This document shows, one piece after another, positions 6,005-43,970 of a stretch of DNA of 51,410 bases; the first letter of the stretch is position 1, and every line of letters begins with the position of its first letter. Position numbers and translations under genes: made by a program. The DNA is taken from IMG/VR virus record IMGVR_UViG_3300035703_000130, positions 1-51,410 of that record; one strand, 5' to 3'. Below the pieces are notes generated by a model, which was not told where the DNA came from, did not search any database, and saw only the letters and a list, made by a program, of their open reading frames with translations. This DNA is from a virus (lineage: Duplodnaviria; Caudoviricetes).

Positions 6005-6400
6005 ATGGACCTTTCTAATTTCGTTCCTAAAAGCGACACCGCTACTTTTGAAATTCGTCACCCCATCACTGGTGAAATCCTCGCTAAAGATGACGGCACT
6101 GAAATGACGATTACCGTCTATCTCCCCCACAGCAAAGAGTATAAGGCTGTTGTTCACGAACAGAATAACAAGCGTATTGCTCGGGCACAAAAGGGCAAGG
6201 CAGTCTATACGTCTGAGGACCTTGAAGAAGCCACCCTTGATCTTCTGGTTAAGACGACAAAGGATTGGAATATCCAATTCAATAAAAAGAACATTAAGTT
6301 CAGCCAAGAAGAAGCTAGGGAAATCTATACAAAGCTTCCTTGGGTTAAAGCTCAAATCATGCAACAGCAGGAAGACCTGACAAATTTTTTGAGCAACTAG
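6005..6400 (+). CDS. Tail assembly chaperone (gpG-like)
   Basis: Between tail tube and tape measure genes; ends at a slippery site. Confidence 0.8.
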   Translation: MDLSNFVPKSDTATFEIRHPITGEILAKDDGTEMTITVYLPHSKEYKAVVHEQNNKRIARAQKGKAVYTSEDLEEATLDLLVKTTKDWNIQFNKKNIKFSQEEAREIYTKLPWVKAQIMQQQEDLTNFLSN

Positions 6401-6747
6401 TCTGTGAATTAGAAGACTATGCCGCGTGGGACTTTAAGCTCGCTATCCCAGATAAAGATGGCGTCCCTGAGAGAGAACACTTAAAGCAAGTTGAAATCCA
6501 GACTGGTAGAACACCTTTACCACTTGTATCGCCCCCTTTCCCTAAAGAGCTTAATCACTTGTGGTCAAAATTCTTAGAGCTATCCAATACAAGGTCTATG
6601 GGTTACAGTGGGCCTATGCCTATTACTTATCAGGAAATCTTGGCTTGGGTAGCTCTCACTGGTAATACACTTTCCCCTTGGGAAGTTGAAGTTATCAAAC
6701 GTCTAGACAAAATCTATGTGAAGGTAGTGAGCAATGGCCGATCTTAA
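6382..6747 (+). CDS. Tail assembly chaperone -1 frameshift extension (gpT-like)
   Basis: Slippery A AAT TTT TTG at 6382-6391; the -1 frame is open from 6382 to 6747 (FEQLVCELEDYAAW...PMPITYQEILAW). Confidence 0.8.
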   Translation, partial: KFFEQLVCELEDYAAWDFKLAIPDKDGVPEREHLKQVEIQTGRTPLPLVSPPFPKELNHLWSKFLELSNTRSMGYSGPMPITYQEILAWVALTGNTLSPWEVEVIKRLDKIYVKVVSNGRS

Positions 6748-8458
6748 TATCAGCGTTGACATGACTCAGTTGAAAGAACTCAACAGGGAAATGTTAAAGA
6801 CTACCTCCACCTACAATATTGCCACCCGAGAGTTAGAAACTTTCTCTGGTGCTCAAATGCGTTCGGTTGGTAGTATGAACCGTATGGGGGTTGTTACTCA
6901 GCAGGCGGGTTATCAAATTGGTGACTTTTTAGTTCAAGTCCAATCTGGGACTAATGCTTTTGTTGCTTTTGGTCAACAGGCCACTCAGTTAGCCGGTCTT
7001 ATGACTACTTTTGGTGGTAAGTTCATTGCTATCGGAACTGCATTGGGTATTATTATTCCATTAGCCACCGCTCTTGGTGCCGTTTGGATGAGGACTTCCC
7101 AAGAGGTTGACCCCGCAACAGATTCTCTCAAACGGTATGAAGAAGCTCTTAAGTCTATTATTGATAGAACAGAGGAAGCTCGTTTAAAAAGTATTGGACA
7201 AATCTTAGGTGTCACGACCGAAGAAGTAACTGTCCTTGAACGTATTAAACAAGTAGAGGCTGAGAGAGAAGAGATTGCCAATAATATTCTCAACATTCAG
7301 AGGAACGCTGTTGTTGCTCAGGGTATGTATGATATTGTTGCGGCTGGCGCTGCTTGGCAACAAGAAAGACAGCTAAAAGCTCTTGAAGGTCAGTTAAAAA
7401 CTGCGGAAGAGACGTTAGAAAATCTTCGCTCTCAAAACTACGAGACGCAATACACTAACGCTATGCTTGCCAAACAAGAAGCTTTATACGTTCGCCAACT
7501 TCAAACCCAAACTAGAGTGGTTGTTCTTACAAAGGAACAGGCTGCTGCTTTAGAAGAGGGACGTAAAAGAGCCGAACAAATCAACACCGCAATTAGTAAG
7601 TTTGCTGGAACAACCGTTAAGGTTGGTGTAGAGTTTCAAGCTAGTTTTGTTGGCTTCACTGATCAAGCTATGGGTTGGGCCAGTGGTCTTTACAACAATA
7701 TGAAAGACCTTGCCAGTAATGAAGGCACAATGTGGAGTTCCCCTAGACCTCGTAGCGCCCCTGCTATGTTGGGGGAACCGGAGCTAGGTTCTGGTGGCGG
7801 TGGTGGGGGAGGCGGAGGTAATGCTCGCCTTGAATCTCTTATCTCTGAATTACAAACTGAGAGTGAAACTTTAGCCGCTTGGTATGAAGAATCTCAAGCT
7901 GCACTACAAGCCGCCTCTGACGCTGAACTTACTATTCTTGGCGGTAAGCACGAAGCCATGCTTCGCCTCACAGAAGAATACCACAAGCGTAAAAACGAGA
8001 TTGATGAAATGGGGAACCAATGGTCCCTAGAATCTGCTCTCGGGGGTGCTGCTGAAATTGCTGGCGCTTTAGGCGCTTTCAATAAAAAGGCTCTTAAGGC
8101 TCAGGCTGTATTCGCTGCTGGTGCCGCTTTGATTGATACCTATCAGGGGGCTGCTAGGGAACTTAGAAAAGGAACCTTTGGTTTCGCTACCGCTGCTGCG
8201 GTTATTGCTAAGGGTCTTGGTTTTGTCGCGGCAATTAAATCTGCCGGTGAAGGTAACACTAGCATTAGTGCTGGTGGTGGTGGACGAGGAACTTCTACAG
8301 TGCCTCAGCAAGCTGCTGCCCCTTCCCCACAAACAGTTTACATTGACTCGCTTGATCCTGCTGGCTTGTATAGCGGACAAACACTCATCAATCTGTTTGA
8401 TGCGTTCTATGATGAAAATGATAAACGAGGGAAAGTCTTCGTAGTAGCAAGAGGATAA
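6734..8458 (+). CDS. Tape measure protein
   Basis: QQAGYQIGDFLVQVQSGT..FGQQATQL motif; long Ala-rich helical protein after the chaperones. Confidence 0.85.
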   Translation: MADLNISVDMTQLKELNREMLKTTSTYNIATRELETFSGAQMRSVGSMNRMGVVTQQAGYQIGDFLVQVQSGTNAFVAFGQQATQLAGLMTTFGGKFIAIGTALGIIIPLATALGAVWMRTSQEVDPATDSLKRYEEALKSIIDRTEEARLKSIGQILGVTTEEVTVLERIKQVEAEREEIANNILNIQRNAVVAQGMYDIVAAGAAWQQERQLKALEGQLKTAEETLENLRSQNYETQYTNAMLAKQEALYVRQLQTQTRVVVLTKEQAAALEEGRKRAEQINTAISKFAGTTVKVGVEFQASFVGFTDQAMGWASGLYNNMKDLASNEGTMWSSPRPRSAPAMLGEPELGSGGGGGGGGGNARLESLISELQTESETLAAWYEESQAALQAASDAELTILGGKHEAMLRLTEEYHKRKNEIDEMGNQWSLESALGGAAEIAGALGAFNKKALKAQAVFAAGAALIDTYQGAARELRKGTFGFATAAAVIAKGLGFVAAIKSAGEGNTSISAGGGGRGTSTVPQQAAAPSPQTVYIDSLDPAGLYSGQTLINLFDAFYDENDKRGKVFVVARG

Positions 8459-18446: not shown

Positions 18447-19007
18447 TCATCGCGGATGAAACCTCGTGAAACCTTCGTAGTTGAAGTCAAACTTATACCA
18501 GCAGAAATTATCAACACCTTTGACTTTCTTACCGTCTTCATTCTCGAACCACCAAAGCCTACCTACAGACACAACGTCTTGGCAAATAGACATATAAGGC
18601 GACATGCGTTTGTTGTGCATCATATCCGCAGGCAGCAACAACCAAGTTGGCATCAGTCTAGGAAGATGCTCTAGAATAGGTTGAAGCATTTTCCATTCGT
18701 AAGGTGGATTAGTGATGAACTCGTGGGCAGACATACAATCTAGCTTAGTTAAAAACAAACAGTTCTTTTGCACTACATCTGCTCTTAACGGTTCAATATC
18801 ATATGCCGCCACACACGTCACAGGAGGCCCGCTAGAGGCCAGCAAGTCAATCAGGCTACCATCCCCAGCGCAAGGTTCGATATAGCGTGTCTGTAGCCCT
18901 GTAGGGTGCCACAGGAAAGGCGCTAGGGCAGCTACAGCGGCAGGGTCCTTAGTCGGATACCAATCCCTCTCTAGGCGAGGCTTCTTAGTCTCTTCTCGTT
19001 TACCCAT
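18447..19007 (-). CDS. DNA N6-adenine methyltransferase (compact)
   Basis: DWYPT, EPCAGDG (SAM-binding) and ITNPPY (catalytic). Confidence 0.85.
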   Translation of the reverse strand: MGKREETKKPRLERDWYPTKDPAAVAALAPFLWHPTGLQTRYIEPCAGDGSLIDLLASSGPPVTCVAAYDIEPLRADVVQKNCLFLTKLDCMSAHEFITNPPYEWKMLQPILEHLPRLMPTWLLLPADMMHNKRMSPYMSICQDVVSVGRLWWFENEDGKKVKGVDNFCWYKFDFNYEGFTRFHPR

Positions 19008-19266
19008 TATAGCCTTCCAGTGTTTTTAATCCCAACCAGTTTTTAGGCGGCTCAGATAAGACTTTTTTGTAGGACAGGGTGGGTAGAAGCTTAACCAGTT
19101 CACTAGTGCATCTTGGGCAAACCTCTTTCCATGAGGTAGTGTTTGTATGCCACTCTTCCTCAATCTCAAAAACTACCTTAACAGAGTAGTAATCTTTTGA
19201 AGGTCGCTTGTCGTGAACCTCTCCACACCTATCGCATTGCCATTTTTCAATAACAAGTTTACCCAA
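19000..19266 (-). CDS. Zn-finger hypothetical protein
   Basis: CDRC...CPRC. Confidence 0.55.
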   Translation of the reverse strand: MGKLVIEKWQCDRCGEVHDKRPSKDYYSVKVVFEIEEEWHTNTTSWKEVCPRCTSELVKLLPTLSYKKVLSEPPKNWLGLKTLEGYNG

Positions 19267-21331: not shown

Positions 21332-21380
21332 ACTAAGTAGCTCAATACTAAAAAGGCCAACAGGCCCATTAGGCCATTTA

Positions 21381-22040
21381 TCATAAACTTCTCCAAGTCA
21401 AAGGTGTTTGCAAAGCGTCAATCCTAGTTGCCATTTGTTTTGGGCATTTTTCTGCACCCTTGTTCTTAAAATTTCTGGCTATATTGGTGCTATCTGCACT
21501 AGCAAAAGGCCAACGTTTACCTGAAACGGACAACCCCCTCATCATATGGACATAGGGCCGAGTTCCAGTTTTATCAATTAACTCCCAAGCTTCATCAGCA
21601 CGATCTGCCCAATCAGGGGAGCTAAGTTTCCAGTATTTACCAGAGGAACCAAAAGCCACTTTTGGGTATGTTTCCACCAATCTCTTAAGCCAATCAAGAG
21701 GCAAATCCATGTGCCAAACGTAACAGGACAAATGATCTGGATAAGGCCAATCTTTAGCAGATTCTACTTGTTGTTCTACAGAACCACCTATAATGTCAGG
21801 GACAACAGCCCAATTGGCCCCGTAAAGTTTGTCGTCTAACCAACGGTAGTAAGCTTGTTTATCAAACTGGATTCCTCTTGTGTAAGAGGAAAAAGCACCA
21901 TTATCCCACATAATAGATTGTGCGTTTCTGATGCACCAGTTGGCATTTTCTGGTCTAGCGAAAGAGACACAGAAGTTGTGTCCCTTAAGCTTTTCCAACT
22001 CACTGTTTGGGGTTAGAGGGGTTCCATGATAATGAAGCAC
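21381..22040 (-). CDS. Compact TGT/DpdA-fold transglycosylase-like protein
   Basis: WDNGAFS, VVPD, HMMRG and ASADST motifs in TGT order; GGAGG RBS before GTG. Confidence 0.6.
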   Translation of the reverse strand: MLHYHGTPLTPNSELEKLKGHNFCVSFARPENANWCIRNAQSIMWDNGAFSSYTRGIQFDKQAYYRWLDDKLYGANWAVVPDIIGGSVEQQVESAKDWPYPDHLSCYVWHMDLPLDWLKRLVETYPKVAFGSSGKYWKLSSPDWADRADEAWELIDKTGTRPYVHMMRGLSVSGKRWPFASADSTNIARNFKNKGAEKCPKQMATRIDALQTPLTWRSL

Positions 22041-22542
22041 GATACCTCCAATACAGATAAACTGCTACGACAAGACTTGCATAGATTTTAGCCACAAAAT
22101 TACCAAGGGCAAACTCTAACGCGCCAAAGGCGATAATAGTGAACAAAACGCTATCAACGGCAGCACCGACTACACCAGAGGCAACTACAGCCCAATGCTT
22201 ACCCTTTTTCCGAAGGGGGGTATATACAGCAAGGTCAAACACCTCGGCCACAGTAAAAGCCACCATAGAGGCCAGAGCAACAAATGGGTCGCTTGTTAGG
22301 TAGGAAACAAAACCCCCTAAAAAGACAGCAGCAAGAGACCATTTCCATCCAGCCAACTCTTGCAACCAATCCCGTAAGACAAGAGCAAAGCCAATCATAA
22401 GAACACCAGAAGGTGCCATAAGACCAAACCCAACAGGAATAAGGCAAGGCCCGTTCTCAACGCATACGGTTCCTACAGAACCAATCAAAAGGTTTGCCAC
22501 CCATACAGAGGCAGCAAGTAGTAGAGTAACTAAGTATTTCAT
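22000..22542 (-). CDS. yhhQ: VUT/YhhQ-family queuosine-precursor transporter
   Basis: Multi-TM; G.ALVLRD..QE..G, AS..AF..AE..D..VY, SG.VGA.VDS.LF; start refined to ATG 22542. Confidence 0.8.
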   Translation of the reverse strand: MKYLVTLLLAASVWVANLLIGSVGTVCVENGPCLIPVGFGLMAPSGVLMIGFALVLRDWLQELAGWKWSLAAVFLGGFVSYLTSDPFVALASMVAFTVAEVFDLAVYTPLRKKGKHWAVVASGVVGAAVDSVLFTIIAFGALEFALGNFVAKIYASLVVAVYLYWRYRASLSWNPSNPKQ

Positions 22543-23276
22543 TTTGGAGGCTCCCATAGCTCACCGGGGTATCGTCTAATCCAAAGCAACCTAGCGTTTT
22601 CTAGAACACGAGACTCTGCCTCTTGGTAGCTGTGGTCGTGTGGGTGCTTAGAACAAATTTCATAATCATAGGCACTAACACAAGCATTATAAAGAGCTTT
22701 CTCACTATCACAACCTTCCAAGAGCTTTTCCGCTTTGACAGGTCCAATACCATAGATACCAATAATGTTATCTACTCGGTCACCCATCAAGATTTGCTTA
22801 TAGAAGTTCTTGGTTGCTTCCCAATTATCTACTGTTTTCCACTCCCACCTAGAGGGGTTGAAGATAGTGGTAGGAAGTTGCTCAAAATCCTTGTCGATAC
22901 TGACAATGACAACTCTGTCGTAGCCATAGTAATTAGCGTGAATACCAATTGCATCGTCTGCTTCACAACCTTCTGTGACTAAAGCATCATACTTGAAAAT
23001 TAAGTGTTCTCGTAAGGCAGAGAAGTGAGGTGGCTTTTCGGTGTCTTTTCGGTTTCCTTTGTAAACAGCCGTTTTGGCAATATCATTACGAAAGTTACCT
23101 TTTCCAGTGAGGAAGAACTTTCTATAGTTTGTGGTTCCCCAAGGATCGACTTCTTCGATGATGTGTCCAATTAACTCATCCAGTTTAAGCTTTGCGGTTT
23201 GTTCATCAGAGTCTTTCTCTGCCCAAGCACAACGATAGACGAGAACATCACCATCAAACAGTAAGTATTTATTCAT
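22539..23276 (-). CDS. 5'-3' exonuclease (T7 gp6/FEN-like)
   Basis: DGD, NFR, YKGNR, EADD, SIDKD, GDRVDNI.GI.GIG. Confidence 0.9.
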   Translation of the reverse strand: MNKYLLFDGDVLVYRCAWAEKDSDEQTAKLKLDELIGHIIEEVDPWGTTNYRKFFLTGKGNFRNDIAKTAVYKGNRKDTEKPPHFSALREHLIFKYDALVTEGCEADDAIGIHANYYGYDRVVIVSIDKDFEQLPTTIFNPSRWEWKTVDNWEATKNFYKQILMGDRVDNIIGIYGIGPVKAEKLLEGCDSEKALYNACVSAYDYEICSKHPHDHSYQEAESRVLENARLLWIRRYPGELWEPPK

Positions 23277-25148: not shown

Positions 25149-25727
25149 TCAGATTTTCTTGAGGTAGTTAATCTCTTTGGTCGCATTTTTGGACTTGGTA
25201 TCCACGTCAACAACCATAGCGATTTGGTAGTTACTACCTGCGTAGCCTTCCATAACGAGAGCGTCACCTTTTACAAGGTCTTTTGCTTCGTTGAAGTAAT
25301 GGTAGATAGTTCCGTTAGTTGCGAACTTAACCCCAATCGTATACGGAATGACTTCCGACACAGAGGCTTTGTCCACAGCAATAACATCACCGGAACCCTT
25401 AATTTCCATTACCCACTGGCCTTGACTATTCACTGCCAGTTTGTAACCGTAGGACTTGATATCGCCACGGTTGATTTCGTAGAGCGTCTTTTCATTAGCC
25501 ATGTTGGTTTCTCCTTGTTTTGGCGGTTCAAAAGTAGAATAACCCTTTGACACTAGAACTACGTTGTTTCTAGAGATAGTTGTCTTTTCAACACTGTCAC
25601 AAATAACATGCTCTAGGTTTAGCATATGTGCGCCGCGAGTTGACGCCACACGCCATATTTTTTTTGTTTCTCCTAAATAATGAGCTTGTTTCTTTACAAA
25701 ATCACCAACCTCAATAAAACCCTTCAT
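25149..25727 (-). CDS. Hypothetical protein (strong internal start at 25502)
   Basis: ORF after the polymerase; internal AAGGAGA-ATG. Confidence 0.55.
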   Translation of the reverse strand: MKGFIEVGDFVKKQAHYLGETKKIWRVASTRGAHMLNLEHVICDSVEKTTISRNNVVLVSKGYSTFEPPKQGETNMANEKTLYEINRGDIKSYGYKLAVNSQGQWVMEIKGSGDVIAVDKASVSEVIPYTIGVKFATNGTIYHYFNEAKDLVKGDALVMEGYAGSNYQIAMVVDVDTKSKNATKEINYLKKI

Positions 25728-26302
25728 CAGTGCACCATATCGTAAGATTTACCGAACTTAACATCAATACCAAGAGGCACGTTAAGCTTTAGATCGTCGT
25801 TAGTCATCTGCATAGCTTTCTCCAACAGGTCTTTTCTCTCCTGCTCTTTTCCCACGGGAACGATAGAACCCTTTTCGTCGTGGAATTGGAAGTTGATTTT
25901 GCAACCCAACCCGCGCACATAGTAAAGCCACTTATCAAAGCAATAGACACCTGTCCCTTGGTTCAGGGTTGAGAAGCGATCTTTTTCATTCCGTAGTTGA
26001 TACCAAAAACCAGATACAGGGTTCTTAAGCCACATGCTTTGGCCAGTGTGCTTTACCTCGCAATCGTTAGCTACTTTCTGCACAGCCCAATTCTTCTTCC
26101 AGAAGGCATCCAGAAGACTTTTGGCAAACTCTACCGTGCAATTAAGATCACGAGCGAGCTTTTTCTCCCTGATACCATAGGTTGAGCTATAGTTTGTAAC
26201 TTTTGATGGTTTTCTAATTTGATGTATTTTATCATACAACTCTTTTTGTTTGTCTTTCGGTAGGGCTTTCATCTGTGCTAGGGTAAGTGTGTTTCCTGAC
26301 AT
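25727..26302 (-). CDS. polA: DNA polymerase family A, C-terminal fragment (motifs B and C)
   Basis: RKPSKVTNYSSTYG (motif B), STLNQGTG, QFHDE (motif C). Confidence 0.88.
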   Translation of the reverse strand: MSGNTLTLAQMKALPKDKQKELYDKIHQIRKPSKVTNYSSTYGIREKKLARDLNCTVEFAKSLLDAFWKKNWAVQKVANDCEVKHTGQSMWLKNPVSGFWYQLRNEKDRFSTLNQGTGVYCFDKWLYYVRGLGCKINFQFHDEKGSIVPVGKEQERKDLLEKAMQMTNDDLKLNVPLGIDVKFGKSYDMVH

Positions 26303-26684
26303 ACTCAGCGGCGCTTTCTAAATACTTAGGGTTGTCTTGGAAAAGTCCCAAGCCTCGGTTGCAGTTGTGACATAACAAAGCCCTAACCTCTCCCGTTTTG
26401 TGGTTATGATCAACGTTAAGTCCAGACACGTGATCTTCTCGCATTTTAAAACCAAAGTCTCTACAAATAGCACACTTAAAGTCCTGCTCTGCAAGCATAC
26501 GATGCACGTCTCTGACGCTTATACCATAAGACCTTTTATAGTGCTTATCACTGTGGGCCTGTTGTCTACACTCTTCACAACAATAGTGATGTGATGGAGC
26601 CATAGGTTCAAAACTATCTCCACACCATTTACAAAGCTTATCTCTAAAACTACCTTGAGGATACTTACTCCTATGGGCTGTCAT
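26232..26684 (-). CDS. Endonuclease VII-family homing endonuclease with N-terminal Zn finger
   Basis: YGIS...Q..KCAIC...VDHNH.TG.VR.LLC..CNRGLG.FQD; start at ATG 26684 is a guess. Confidence 0.88.
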   Translation of the reverse strand: MTAHRSKYPQGSFRDKLCKWCGDSFEPMAPSHHYCCEECRQQAHSDKHYKRSYGISVRDVHRMLAEQDFKCAICRDFGFKMREDHVSGLNVDHNHKTGEVRALLCHNCNRGLGLFQDNPKYLESAAEYVRKHTYPSTDESPTERQTKRVV

Positions 26685-26694
26685 TGGTTTTAGT

Positions 26695-28089
26695 TTAAGA
26701 GGCGTCTTTACTTTTAAACCATTTATAAAACTCATACTCATCTTCTGTAATAAGGCCAGCAAACACGGCCAAGCTTAGGTGAGGGTCATACCCTTCCTGT
26801 TGCATTTCCTCAACGTATTCTGGATCATGCGGTTGGATATAATGCCTCTTGGTTGTATCTTCCAACGACACCATATCAGAGCCACAGATTGAATAGCCTT
26901 CTGGTGCAATAATACAGGAGCGAATTTCTTTGCCCCAAGGCTTATCAACTCCAGGAATATTAGCCAAAGGCTTCCGGTGTTGGAACCTGAGAGTGTTAGT
27001 CAAACCATCAATAGAAGCAGTAAGCTTTCCATCTTTGTGAGACTCAAGAAAACCCTTGAAGAAACCTACGCGGTGTTTGATGATGGAGAGTCCCGCCAGA
27101 ACTTGAACAGCGGGGTCTTTTTCAGCCAGTTCCAGAACTTCTTCACACAATTCTCCTTCATTAGGATGACCTTTAGGATACCTGATCTGAGGTATCTGCT
27201 TATTTTCCCCTGTTACCTTATTACGTTCAAACTTAAAAGTCTTGCACTCCCAACCAAGATCGGTGAGCCAAGCCTTAATCTGAACATCAGATTGTGGGTT
27301 AGGTTCGACATACTCTTTAACATAGGTAACATCAGACACCGTGTCTAGAGGCAGGTTGAGAGAGGCCAGCAGAGCTTGCCACTTGATCCCGTGTGCACTC
27401 AATCCACCGTCTTTGAGGAAAGGTTTTTTGGGATAACTTTTGGTTTCGTAAACCGCAACTTTAGGCATAGAAGCAGCGAGTTCAACAAATTTTTCATCAC
27501 GTTGCCTTTCAAGCTCAGTCAAATGTTTTTGTGCAGATACAAGATCAACCGTAATGGGGTTAGCCTCTTGTTCCCTCGCACAGTCCATCTTGAAAGCAAG
27601 ATAGGAAGTATACCTAAGCCATTCCTTCTGGTCTTTGTCATAGAGGATATTAAGCTTACGCTCAAGGTCCTTCCACAACAGCCAGTTGATCTTTACGTCT
27701 TCCGTGACACGGTGTGCGTATTCTTCGTAGCTAAGGTTATTCCAGTCTTCGACTTTTGGTTTTGGGACTCCGAAGGTTTCTCCGTAGCTTTCAAGTCCGT
27801 GCTTGTCTCGTTGGTAATTGATTGTCCACGATAACGGGAGCGTGTCCACAAAATCATGATAAAGCAAATCAAGACCAAGGATACGATTAAATACAGGTAG
27901 GTCAAATCGAATGGCATTGTGGCAAACCAACTTTCTATCTCGGGGGTGTCCAGACAGAACAGCCCTCATTTCAAAATAGTCACCTGTAGTGCGATAGTTT
28001 ACTCCATCTTCGGTCCACCCAAGCACATGAATCTTAGTGCATACATCTTGAAACCCGTCAGTTTCACTATCGACTACAATAAACTTCAT
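26695..28089 (-). CDS. polA: DNA polymerase family A, N-terminal fragment (3'-5' exonuclease and motif A)
   Basis: DSETDG, HNAIRFD, TNTLRFQH, GSDMVSLE (motif A), DPH; start refined to ATG 28089. Confidence 0.9.
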   Translation of the reverse strand: MKFIVVDSETDGFQDVCTKIHVLGWTEDGVNYRTTGDYFEMRAVLSGHPRDRKLVCHNAIRFDLPVFNRILGLDLLYHDFVDTLPLSWTINYQRDKHGLESYGETFGVPKPKVEDWNNLSYEEYAHRVTEDVKINWLLWKDLERKLNILYDKDQKEWLRYTSYLAFKMDCAREQEANPITVDLVSAQKHLTELERQRDEKFVELAASMPKVAVYETKSYPKKPFLKDGGLSAHGIKWQALLASLNLPLDTVSDVTYVKEYVEPNPQSDVQIKAWLTDLGWECKTFKFERNKVTGENKQIPQIRYPKGHPNEGELCEEVLELAEKDPAVQVLAGLSIIKHRVGFFKGFLESHKDGKLTASIDGLTNTLRFQHRKPLANIPGVDKPWGKEIRSCIIAPEGYSICGSDMVSLEDTTKRHYIQPHDPEYVEEMQQEGYDPHLSLAVFAGLITEDEYEFYKWFKSKDAS

Positions 28090-28265
28090 TAGATATCCCT
28101 TGTCGTCAACGATTGGTATCGAGCGTTCCAACCCGCTTCAAAAGCGCCTCGAATAGCTTCAACTAAGTCGTCCCAATCCCCACCTGAAACATCGTATAGC
28201 CACTCGTCAAAATCAATACCACTTTTATTATTTACCCAATTATCATAAGCCTCATCAACAGTCAT
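28089..28265 (-). CDS. Small acidic hypothetical protein (…AFEAGWNA…)
   Basis: 58-aa ORF read manually, coupled at both ends. Confidence 0.55.
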   Translation of the reverse strand: MTVDEAYDNWVNNKSGIDFDEWLYDVSGGDWDDLVEAIRGAFEAGWNARYQSLTTRDI

Positions 28266-33294: not shown

Positions 33295-33371
33295 TGGTCC
33301 GGGTGGCGAGATTCGAACTCGCATTGGAGAGGGTTTAAGGCTCTTGCCGTTACCAGTTAGGCTACACCCGG
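33295..33371 (-). tRNA. tRNA with TAA anticodon (nominal Leu), short variable loop
   Basis: CCGGGTG/CACCCGG-ACCA, D loop AACTGGTAA, CT-TAA-AC, GCGAG-TTCGAAT-CTCGC. Confidence 0.8.
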
Positions 33372-33430
33372 CAGGAATATCGTGTCGGTCTTTCCCGACT
33401 GTCAGATACCATTAGGTATCAATCAGACCT

Positions 33431-33646
33431 TTAATCCGCAAGGTCGGTGGTGGCGTTGACAATCTCCAAGCGGGAGTCAATCAGGAACTTTTCTTGAGCA
33501 AGCGTTGCCAGCGTATCATCCCTTTGGACAGGATTATAGTGACGAACGATGGTCAGAGGAATCCGAGTCCCATCCGGTTGAGAAACAAATTCTTCCTTGA
33601 TACCCCTCTTGATAGCATCACTAATGACACTAACAACAAAGGGCAA
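33431..33646 (-). CDS. Small hypothetical protein between tRNAs
   Basis: Open frame from TTG after tRNA-Glu; start uncertain. Confidence 0.4.
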   Translation of the reverse strand: MPFVVSVISDAIKRGIKEEFVSQPDGTRIPLTIVRHYNPVQRDDTLATLAQEKFLIDSRLEIVNATTDLAD

Positions 33647-33651
33647 GTTAT

Positions 33652-33726
33652 TGGTAGCCCCACCGAGACTCGAACTCGGTTTCCCGCCTTGAAAGGGCAG
33701 TGATCTAACCCATAATCTATGGGGCC
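33652..33726 (-). tRNA. tRNA-Glu(TTC)
   Basis: GGCCCCA/TGGGGCT-ACCA, CTGCC-CTTTCAA-GGCGG, TTCGAGT. Confidence 0.88.
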
Positions 33727-43892: not shown

Positions 43893-43970
43893 TGCTAGGA
43901 AGGTGTTGTTGGTATACATTCCTGACTGTTAATCAGGTTTAAGCTTGGTTCGAATCCAAGAGTAGCAGCA
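43893..43970 (+). tRNA. tRNA-Asn(GTT), degenerate acceptor
   Basis: CCTGA-CTGTTAA-TCAGG, CTTGG-TTCGAAT-CCAAG; two acceptor mismatches, no encoded CCA. Confidence 0.7.

Follow-up and report, generated by a model that had tools for sequence, protein, structure and literature searches.

Two overlapping genes in the 51,410-bp virus genome IMGVR_UViG_3300035703_000130 of IMG/VR (Duplodnaviria; Caudoviricetes), analysed at its full length and here called the window, encode a YhhQ-like membrane transporter (yhhQ) and a compact, 219-residue transglycosylase of the DpdA family (dpdA), which belongs to the superfamily of the tRNA-guanine transglycosylases (TGTs). We consider it probable that this pair lets the phage place a salvaged 7-deazaguanine in its DNA. 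A first-pass annotation, made from the sequence alone, had proposed a minimal import-and-install pair with a divergent TGT/DpdA-fold enzyme, and the proposal is borne out by the gene structure, the family matches of both proteins, the fold and invariant residues of the enzyme, the lack of precursor-synthesis genes in the genome and a near-obligate linkage of the two genes across related viruses.

The open reading frames (ORFs), the Pfam assignment and a motif scan agree with the initial description of a YhhQ/VUT membrane protein that overlaps a 219-residue protein carrying four motifs and no CxCxxC. The frame of the transporter holds two candidate ATG codons (Table 1), the second of which (22542) makes an ATGA overlap with the stop codon of the upstream exonuclease gene and is thus likelier to be the start than the first (22557). 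The dpdA gene, downstream, overlaps yhhQ by 41 nucleotides (22000-22040). Its start is shared by 37 aligned homologues, in which the first-codon residue is M, L or V, followed by I, L or M and an invariant HYHGTP, with short N-terminal extensions in 3 of the 37; because of this common start and of a GGAGG box placed just ahead of the GTG codon, we regard both the GTG start and the overlap as real. A terminator-like hairpin past the dpdA stop is probably the end of the transcription unit, although the match to the consensus is weak, with 8 such sites in the region, compared with an expectation of 5.5 for shuffled sequence.

The transporter matches the Pfam family Vut_1 (PF02592) over residues 89-170 with an expectation value (E) of 9.5e-12 and 46 bits, against a cut-off of 27.2, and matches phrog_4899 at 3.7e-38. 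With five to six hydrophobic segments (19-residue windows, mean Kyte-Doolittle ≥1.6), it is a polytopic membrane protein. It shares 36% identity over 91 residues (E 6e-14) with the 'putative preQ0 transporter' of phage CAjan and, in pairwise comparison, 25% over 151 residues (E 1e-6) with Escherichia coli YhhQ; identities are higher to the homologues in phages Pam5 (58%), RHph_N3_2 (50%) and phiLM21 (50%).

The enzyme has no match in Pfam (E ≤ 0.1) or NCBIfam and is assigned to phrog_887, named 'queuine tRNA-ribosyltransferase', at 2.3e-41. Its motifs are DNGAFS at residue 46, VPD at 80, HMMRG at 165 and SADST at 181; the protein has only four cysteines (24, 36, 106 and 199), which are unclustered, and no C.C..C zinc motif. 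A tblastn search against 50,697 phage records returned 103, all below 60% identity, led by Pseudanabaena phage Pam5 (45%) and Rhizobium phage RHph_N3_2 (41%) and including Salmonella phage 7-11 (~33%) together with three further 'DpdA-only' phages, SEN1, BTP1 and coliphage HK106. The family is large, with 1,951 cluster representatives at E ≤ 1e-5 in a 90%-identity collection and 1,215 at E ≤ 1e-3 at the 50% level, most of them 215-260 residues long and without a Pfam domain. From its members we built a narrow profile of 38 close relatives (A1) and a broad one of 61 members (A2) with 28-73% identity to the 219-residue protein. The narrow profile aligns with the DpdA of phage 7-11 at 99.7% hhalign probability (E 2.7e-25) and only weakly (70%) with that of CAjan, which the broad profile reaches at 98.6% (E 7.1e-16) over 159 columns, residues 34-189, a span that takes in all the motifs. 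With HMMER, A2 recovered the whole phage records of 7-11 (8.5e-63) and CAjan (1.2e-22); it gave no match to the phiLM21 record and none at E ≤ 1 to that of nt-1, which carries a DpdA2, a search in which no candidate went beyond the first look. Judged by these profile comparisons, the protein is a compact phage DpdA, related to DpdA1 and belonging to the 7-11-like 'singleton' subgroup. Within the same family, a metagenomic protein of 421 residues (P0248) joins a D12-class N6-adenine (Dam) DNA methyltransferase (PF02086, 8.6e-62, residues 7-193) to a DpdA-like domain (193-355).

The confident AlphaFold (AF2) model of the enzyme, with a predicted local distance difference test score (pLDDT) of 86.6 and a predicted template modelling score (pTM) of 0.85, has strands (seven listed) that alternate with helices. 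In a search of 48,161 chains with VIA, a method other than Foldseek, archaeosine TGT (ArcTGT, 1iq8) ranked first (Z 11.3, 206 residues aligned), followed by Cap10 at rank 2 (Z 11.0), DpdA (7ui4) at rank 4 (9.7), a bacterial TGT at rank 8 (9.3) and QTRT2 at rank 12 (9.0). Foldseek found 11 matches at E ≤ 1e-3 in BFVD, three of which are annotated as phage 'queuine tRNA-ribosyltransferases', and its best match in the PDB was Cap10 (9ntn, E 3.3e-3), followed by generic TIM barrels. The predicted fold is that of a TIM barrel, closest among solved structures to the TGT superfamily, by a small margin over other barrels; the structural kinship that the first-pass annotation had anticipated is thereby supported, with ArcTGT, Cap10 and DpdA among the best solved matches.

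The active sites of TIM barrels sit at the ends of the strands. In the model, strands end at D46, H110, G131 and H165, D82 stands three positions beyond the end of one, and all five, together with D183, are invariant across the 61 members; F50 is conserved in at least 90% of the 38 closer relatives. For the bacterial DpdA (bDpdA), the available text of PMC10164549 assigns D95 as general acid/base, F99 to base stacking, D130 and H181 to the Watson-Crick edge and D256 as nucleophile, and describes a CXCX2CX22H zinc site that pins a large insertion, number 8. The D-x3-F spacing of D46 and F50 is the same as that of D95 and F99, D82 falls at +36 where D130 falls at +35, and a later invariant aspartate follows, suggesting equivalent roles. 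The 219-residue protein has neither the insertions nor the zinc site and ends shortly after the barrel.

The link between enzyme and importer is seen in the genomes of related viruses. Family patterns matched 599 stretches in IMG/VR, 575 of which encode a relative of the enzyme, and the best 80 were examined. A transporter homologue lies on the same strand within ~1 kb of the enzyme gene in 71 of these 80 loci, the co-occurrence across phages that the annotation had named as a check of its proposal; among the nine loci without one, the enzyme gene stands within ~110 bases of the 5' end of the locus in L016, L021 and L025 and is cut by the 3' end in L046. The two genes adjoin or overlap in 50 of the 71, and both orders occur, with the transporter upstream in 47 and downstream in 24. 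This pairing exceeds chance and is near-obligate within the clade.

What lies between the two genes is also informative. A QueC of 182 residues (PF06508, 2e-42) is found there in 3 of the 71 loci (L052 7173..7721, L061 2823..3371 and L072 9456..10004), with no other preQ0 gene in view, and this placement ties the clade directly to 7-deazaguanine chemistry. One locus (L043 10680..11078) holds a nucleoside 2-deoxyribosyltransferase (NDT)-like protein (132 residues; PF05014, 1.1e-7) in the same position. The QueC and NDT modules suggest that 7-carboxy-7-deazaguanine (CDG) or nucleosides may be salvaged by those phages. A family of small proteins (78-96 residues, sharing conserved CP.D, QE and H.GV-like motifs) occupies the gap in 12 of the 71 (L005, L017, L035, L051, L053-L056, L058, L067, L078 and L083); the T-fold GTP cyclohydrolase I model picks up one of them at 4.9e-4, short of the cut-off. 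Among 23 related records of at least 20 kb, QueC scored above cut-off in one, as the in-module copy, and QueD and FolE in none; in the nine records that are at least 90% complete, all three are absent.

The window itself lacks the means of precursor synthesis, as the annotation had reported. Six-frame Pfam searches of the whole genome at E ≤ 1 returned no QueC, PTPS/QueD, GTP cyclohydrolase I, Radical_SAM, QueF, TGT or GCHY-1/FolE2, QueE being sought through the Radical_SAM model only; no candidate got beyond the loose first look of these searches to be scored, and the controls were positive in 6-14 of 14 reference genomes. Ten neighbouring ORFs, scanned with Pfam and PHROG, yielded neither a pathway enzyme nor a QueF-like, QueC or NDT protein, a search of the genome with PF05014 gave no match, and the 51,410 bp hold no copy of the small wedged protein family. 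A tblastn search with 20 intervening ORFs from the related loci gave weak matches only, the best (E 0.014) to an 88-residue CxxC...CxxC ORF at 19000..19266, which we judged to be due to chance.

Several characterized or sequenced systems help to place this pair. The pair is also present in three isolates, Pam5 (gp30 and gp28), RHph_N3_2 (054/055) and phiLM21 (gp25/gp26), from cyanobacterial and rhizobial hosts, in which transglycosylase and VUT/DUF165 genes stand side by side on one strand in the reverse order, dpdA first, with a small ORF between them in Pam5; an annotated attR suggests that RHph_N3_2 is temperate. In phiLM21 (L089 1623..2974) the 274-residue gp25, a 'queuine tRNA-ribosyltransferase', directly precedes the YhhQ homologue and is not matched by profile A2, which suggests that YhhQ has partners in several DpdA lineages, or at least two; we found no literature linking phiLM21 to queuine. 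Phage 7-11 has a protein of the same family and similarly compact size (gp032, 234 residues as annotated) and likewise no preQ0/G+ synthesis genes, but has no yhhQ beside dpdA, in contrast to the 71 of 80 loci in the clade of the 219-residue enzyme. In the accessible sections of Hutinet et al. 2019 (PMC6884629), the 'DpdA only' phages (group 3) number 76, host preQ0 or uptake of an exogenous precursor is proposed for them, and YhhQ homologues are noted in some phages without correlation with any group.

CAjan (Queuovirinae) provides the best-understood homologues. Its cluster combines a DpdA1 with FolE, QueD, QueE, QueC and YhhQ, so that the phage makes its own preQ0 and yhhQ is dispensable, whereas the window encodes the importer and a barrel core only; the CAjan DpdA has 306 residues, ~90 more at the C terminus than the 219-residue enzyme. 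Deletion of dpdA in CAjan abolishes dPreQ0, the deoxynucleoside of preQ0, in the DNA, according to the part of PMC7544227 available. The bacterial DpdA of Salmonella Montevideo (7ui4) and canonical TGTs share with the phage enzyme a TIM-barrel core, three aspartates and a phenylalanine at D+4 (D95/F99/D130/D256) but are about twice as long, have the zinc site, insertion 8 and other large insertions, and show no significant sequence match to it; the bacterial enzyme also requires the DpdB ATPase in its system. The CAjan DpdA, too, has no CxCxxC. The absence of this motif, pointed out in the first-pass annotation, therefore stands as an observation and separates the 219-residue protein from bacterial DpdA and TGT, but it does not mark the protein as an unusual phage DpdA.

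In the mechanism that we propose, a YhhQ/QPTR-type transporter made in the infected cell would take up a free 7-deazaguanine base from the surroundings. The base would most probably be preQ0 or preQ1 and would supplement the supply made by the host. The barrel-only DpdA would then swap guanines in the phage DNA for the imported base, after replication, by the double displacement of TGT and DpdA enzymes, with D183 as the putative nucleophile, D46 as the general acid/base, D82 and a histidine reading the Watson-Crick edge, and F50 stacking on the base. Phage DNA modified in this way would resist host restriction. The gene structure, the family membership, the fold, the conserved residues, the missing precursor-synthesis genes and the near-obligate linkage are results of the analysis; we infer which base is inserted, that DNA is the target, how far it is modified and that the phage gains protection from restriction.

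A number of findings weigh against salvage-dependent DNA modification by this pair. The transporter falls below the NCBIfam equivalog cut-offs, with 37.7 bits (1.8e-9) against 50.95 for TIGR00697, 'queuosine precursor transporter', and 29.6 bits against 252 for NF008406. Moreover, sequence does not reveal which substrate a YhhQ-family protein transports: preQ0 and preQ1 but not queuine are taken up by E. coli YhhQ, and queuine only by the Chlamydia protein (PMC11130926). For the enzyme, Foldseek found nothing in the PDB at E ≤ 1e-3, and unrelated TIM barrels interleave with the TGT relatives in the VIA list at Z 8-10.5 (PdxJ 10.5, pyruvate kinases 9.2-9.6). The family shows no significant similarity to E. 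coli Tgt (hhalign 1.6% and 0.3% with the two profiles), Pfam TGT (PF01702) matches neither the family nor any of the six frames of the genome, and PDB sequence searches with the protein and both profiles were empty or returned spurious GCN4 coiled coils. The correspondence with bDpdA residues comes from motif spacing and not from a residue-level superposition. Among known phages, deletion of yhhQ in CAjan left the modification unchanged, according to the part of PMC7544227 available. The accessible text of PMC6884629 gives, for the DNA of phage 7-11, 50 2'-deoxy-7-amido-7-deazaguanosines (dADG) per 10^6 nucleotides (~0.02% of G) and no dPreQ0, and no modification for the DpdA-only mycobacteriophage Orion. 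With traces in one and nothing in the other, heavy modification by 'singleton' DpdAs is unproven.

That the enzyme is a true base-exchange relative of DpdA but installs some other base brought in by the transporter (queuine, preQ1, CDG or an unknown 7-deazapurine), or works at a few specific sites at trace level, for example in sequence marking and not in bulk anti-restriction, seems to us unlikely, yet it is one of the two alternatives that survive best. The trace of dADG, and not dPreQ0, in 7-11 DNA (PMC6884629, in its accessible text) is in keeping with it, as are the promiscuity of DpdA2 enzymes for preQ1, preQ0 and CDG described in the available portion of PMC10516641, the variation of YhhQ-family specificity between preQ0/preQ1 and queuine (PMC11130926) and the differing accessory genes (QueC, T-fold-like mini protein, NDT), which suggest different imported forms. 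On the other side, the phage DpdAs of 9g, nt-1 and VH7D inserted preQ0 when expressed in E. coli, the VH7D enzyme preferring preQ1 (PMC6884629 and PMC10516641, as far as their accessible sections report), and the window contains none of the accessory genes and no sequence pointer to a particular alternative base. In the same portion of PMC10516641, the DpdA1 of phiSM was inactive in E. coli and tests of DpdA3 and DpdA4 were unsuccessful.

A bolder alternative is about as improbable. Widespread aquatic phages might depend for their DNA modification on an environmental pool of 7-deazapurines, in which case the base would perhaps not be preQ0, and QueC, the T-fold mini-protein and NDT would tailor the scavenged forms. 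This idea is built on the contrast between a barrel-only DpdA hard-wired to an importer in 71 of 80 loci and the enterobacterial 'singletons' such as 7-11, which have no importer. If true, DNA protection would be a nutrient-dependent trait supplied by the community. Just as bold is the reading in which the enzyme does no bulk modification of DNA and instead works at a handful of positions or on some different substrate.

A tRNA target, which the annotation had left open beside DNA, now looks weak, and we hold it to be distinctly less likely than either of these alternatives. The imported base would be placed at G34 of tRNAs with GUN anticodons, including the tRNA-Asn(GUU) of the phage, and would tune translation. 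The tRNA that had given rise to this suggestion is indeed encoded (Table 1), the top solved fold match, ArcTGT, is a tRNA enzyme, and PHROG and GenBank annotations read 'queuine tRNA-ribosyltransferase'. That name is inherited, however, and the protein consists of the barrel core only, without the zinc-pinned insertion 8 and the insertion 3 that hold the anticodon arm in TGT, as described in the available text of PMC10164549. It has no significant match to Pfam TGT or E. coli Tgt; the significant relatives for which data exist are DNA enzymes, and a Dam-fused relative exists. The pair also lies in a DNA-replication module, and the cassette is missing from Roseobacter phage CRP-6, whose replication module is syntenic in other respects; moreover, the host TGT would already serve tRNA.

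It is very unlikely that the protein is an inactive or repurposed TIM barrel beside a transporter of an unrelated vitamin-like compound, with a linkage that does not run through 7-deazaguanine chemistry. The name of the VUT family derives from 'putative vitamin uptake', the transporter stays below the equivalog cut-offs and generic TIM barrels score near the TGTs in the fold search, but three aspartates are invariant in 61 diverse members, QueC sits inside the module in three loci, and both proteins are homologous to those of CAjan, whose DpdA is validated. Least likely of all, and scarcely credible, is a Cap10-like enzyme acting on protein-linked deazaguanine, for instance to interfere with type IV CBASS (cyclic-oligonucleotide-based anti-phage signalling system) or QatABCD-type deazaguanylation defences, given that Cap10, a TGT-family enzyme remodelled for protein conjugation according to the accessible part of bioRxiv 10.1101/2025.04.06.647259, is the best Foldseek match in the PDB (9ntn, E 3.3e-3) and second in VIA (Z 11.0) but matches no better than ArcTGT or DpdA, at 8-9% identity, whereas sequence homology leads to the DpdAs of CAjan and 7-11 and the tight linkage to a base importer fits the supply of a substrate base.

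The genome that carries the pair is complete, with direct terminal repeats and a CheckV completeness of 100%. The virus is a lytic-type, marine-type siphophage related to Roseobacter phage CRP-6, its closest isolated relative, and a marine member of the Rhodobacteraceae is a plausible host. The two phages share 51.6% identity in the major capsid protein, and their replication modules are syntenic (primase-helicase 56%, polymerase 48-50%, exonuclease 45%, ribonucleotide reductase 68.7%); because neither yhhQ nor dpdA is present in the corresponding module of CRP-6, the pair is an accessory cassette. Its GC content of 0.445 is close to that of the genome (0.447), and a megablast search of the region against phage genomes gave no match. 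The pair stands between the 5'-3' exonuclease gene and a gene for a RusA-like resolvase, within a long block of replication and nucleotide-metabolism genes that also includes ThyX. The ten nearby ORFs covered by the Pfam and PHROG scans further include a MazG-like pyrophosphohydrolase, a methyltransferase-like protein, a split family-A polymerase with an endonuclease VII ORF between its parts, and unknowns.

Table 1. Features of the yhhQ-dpdA pair and tRNA genes of the 51,410-bp genome.
Feature	Position	Strand	Remarks
yhhQ/QPTR-like (VUT, COG1738) membrane transporter gene	22000..22542	-	180 aa; alternative ATG at 22557 gives 185 aa
Compact DpdA-family (TGT-superfamily) transglycosylase gene	21381..22040	-	219 aa; GTG start
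ATGA in which the TGA stop of the upstream 5'-3' exonuclease gene overlaps the ATG start of yhhQ	22539..22542	-	candidate translational coupling signal; read from the sequence
GGAGG box of Shine-Dalgarno type, 4 nt ahead of the dpdA GTG, within the yhhQ coding region	22045..22049	-	read from the sequence
Terminator-like element, 14 nt past the dpdA stop: GC hairpin, then a T run	21354..21367	-	consensus match
tRNA-Asn(GTT)	43893..43969	+	
tRNA-Leu(TAA), tRNA-Glu(TTC)	33295..33726		

Two observations concern other genes of this block. The family-A DNA polymerase occupies two minus-strand ORFs (25727..28131), an N-terminal part at 26695..28131 (478 residues) and a C-terminal part at 25727..26302 (191 residues), which match contiguous stretches (6130-7494 and 7513-8010) of the single polymerase gene of CRP-6; an endonuclease VII ORF at 26232..26762 (PF02945, 4.6e-21) overlaps the ends of both, and the polymerase looks as though it has been split by a mobile endonuclease gene. 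A 186-residue protein at 18447..19007 on the minus strand matches phrog_799, 'DNA methyltransferase', at 3.5e-17 and is 40% identical to gp24 of CRP-6, with no Pfam match; it may be a second DNA-modification gene of the same module.

The modification of DNA with 7-deazaguanines is a recognised phage counter-defence against restriction enzymes, and the phages that would rely on salvage alone form its largest and least understood group, in which, as far as the accessible literature reports, the two tested show little or no modification. The concept of a salvage pair has already been published and the known picture is unchanged; modestly new are the near-obligate linkage in a barrel-only clade and the variable accessory genes. 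The window adds a clean and complete example in a roseophage-like genome, from a clade in which enzyme and importer stay together as one unit and which is a good place to test whether imported precursors drive real DNA modification. Furthermore, the 219-residue enzyme, as a natural minimal TGT/DpdA barrel, could help to define what the catalytic core needs.

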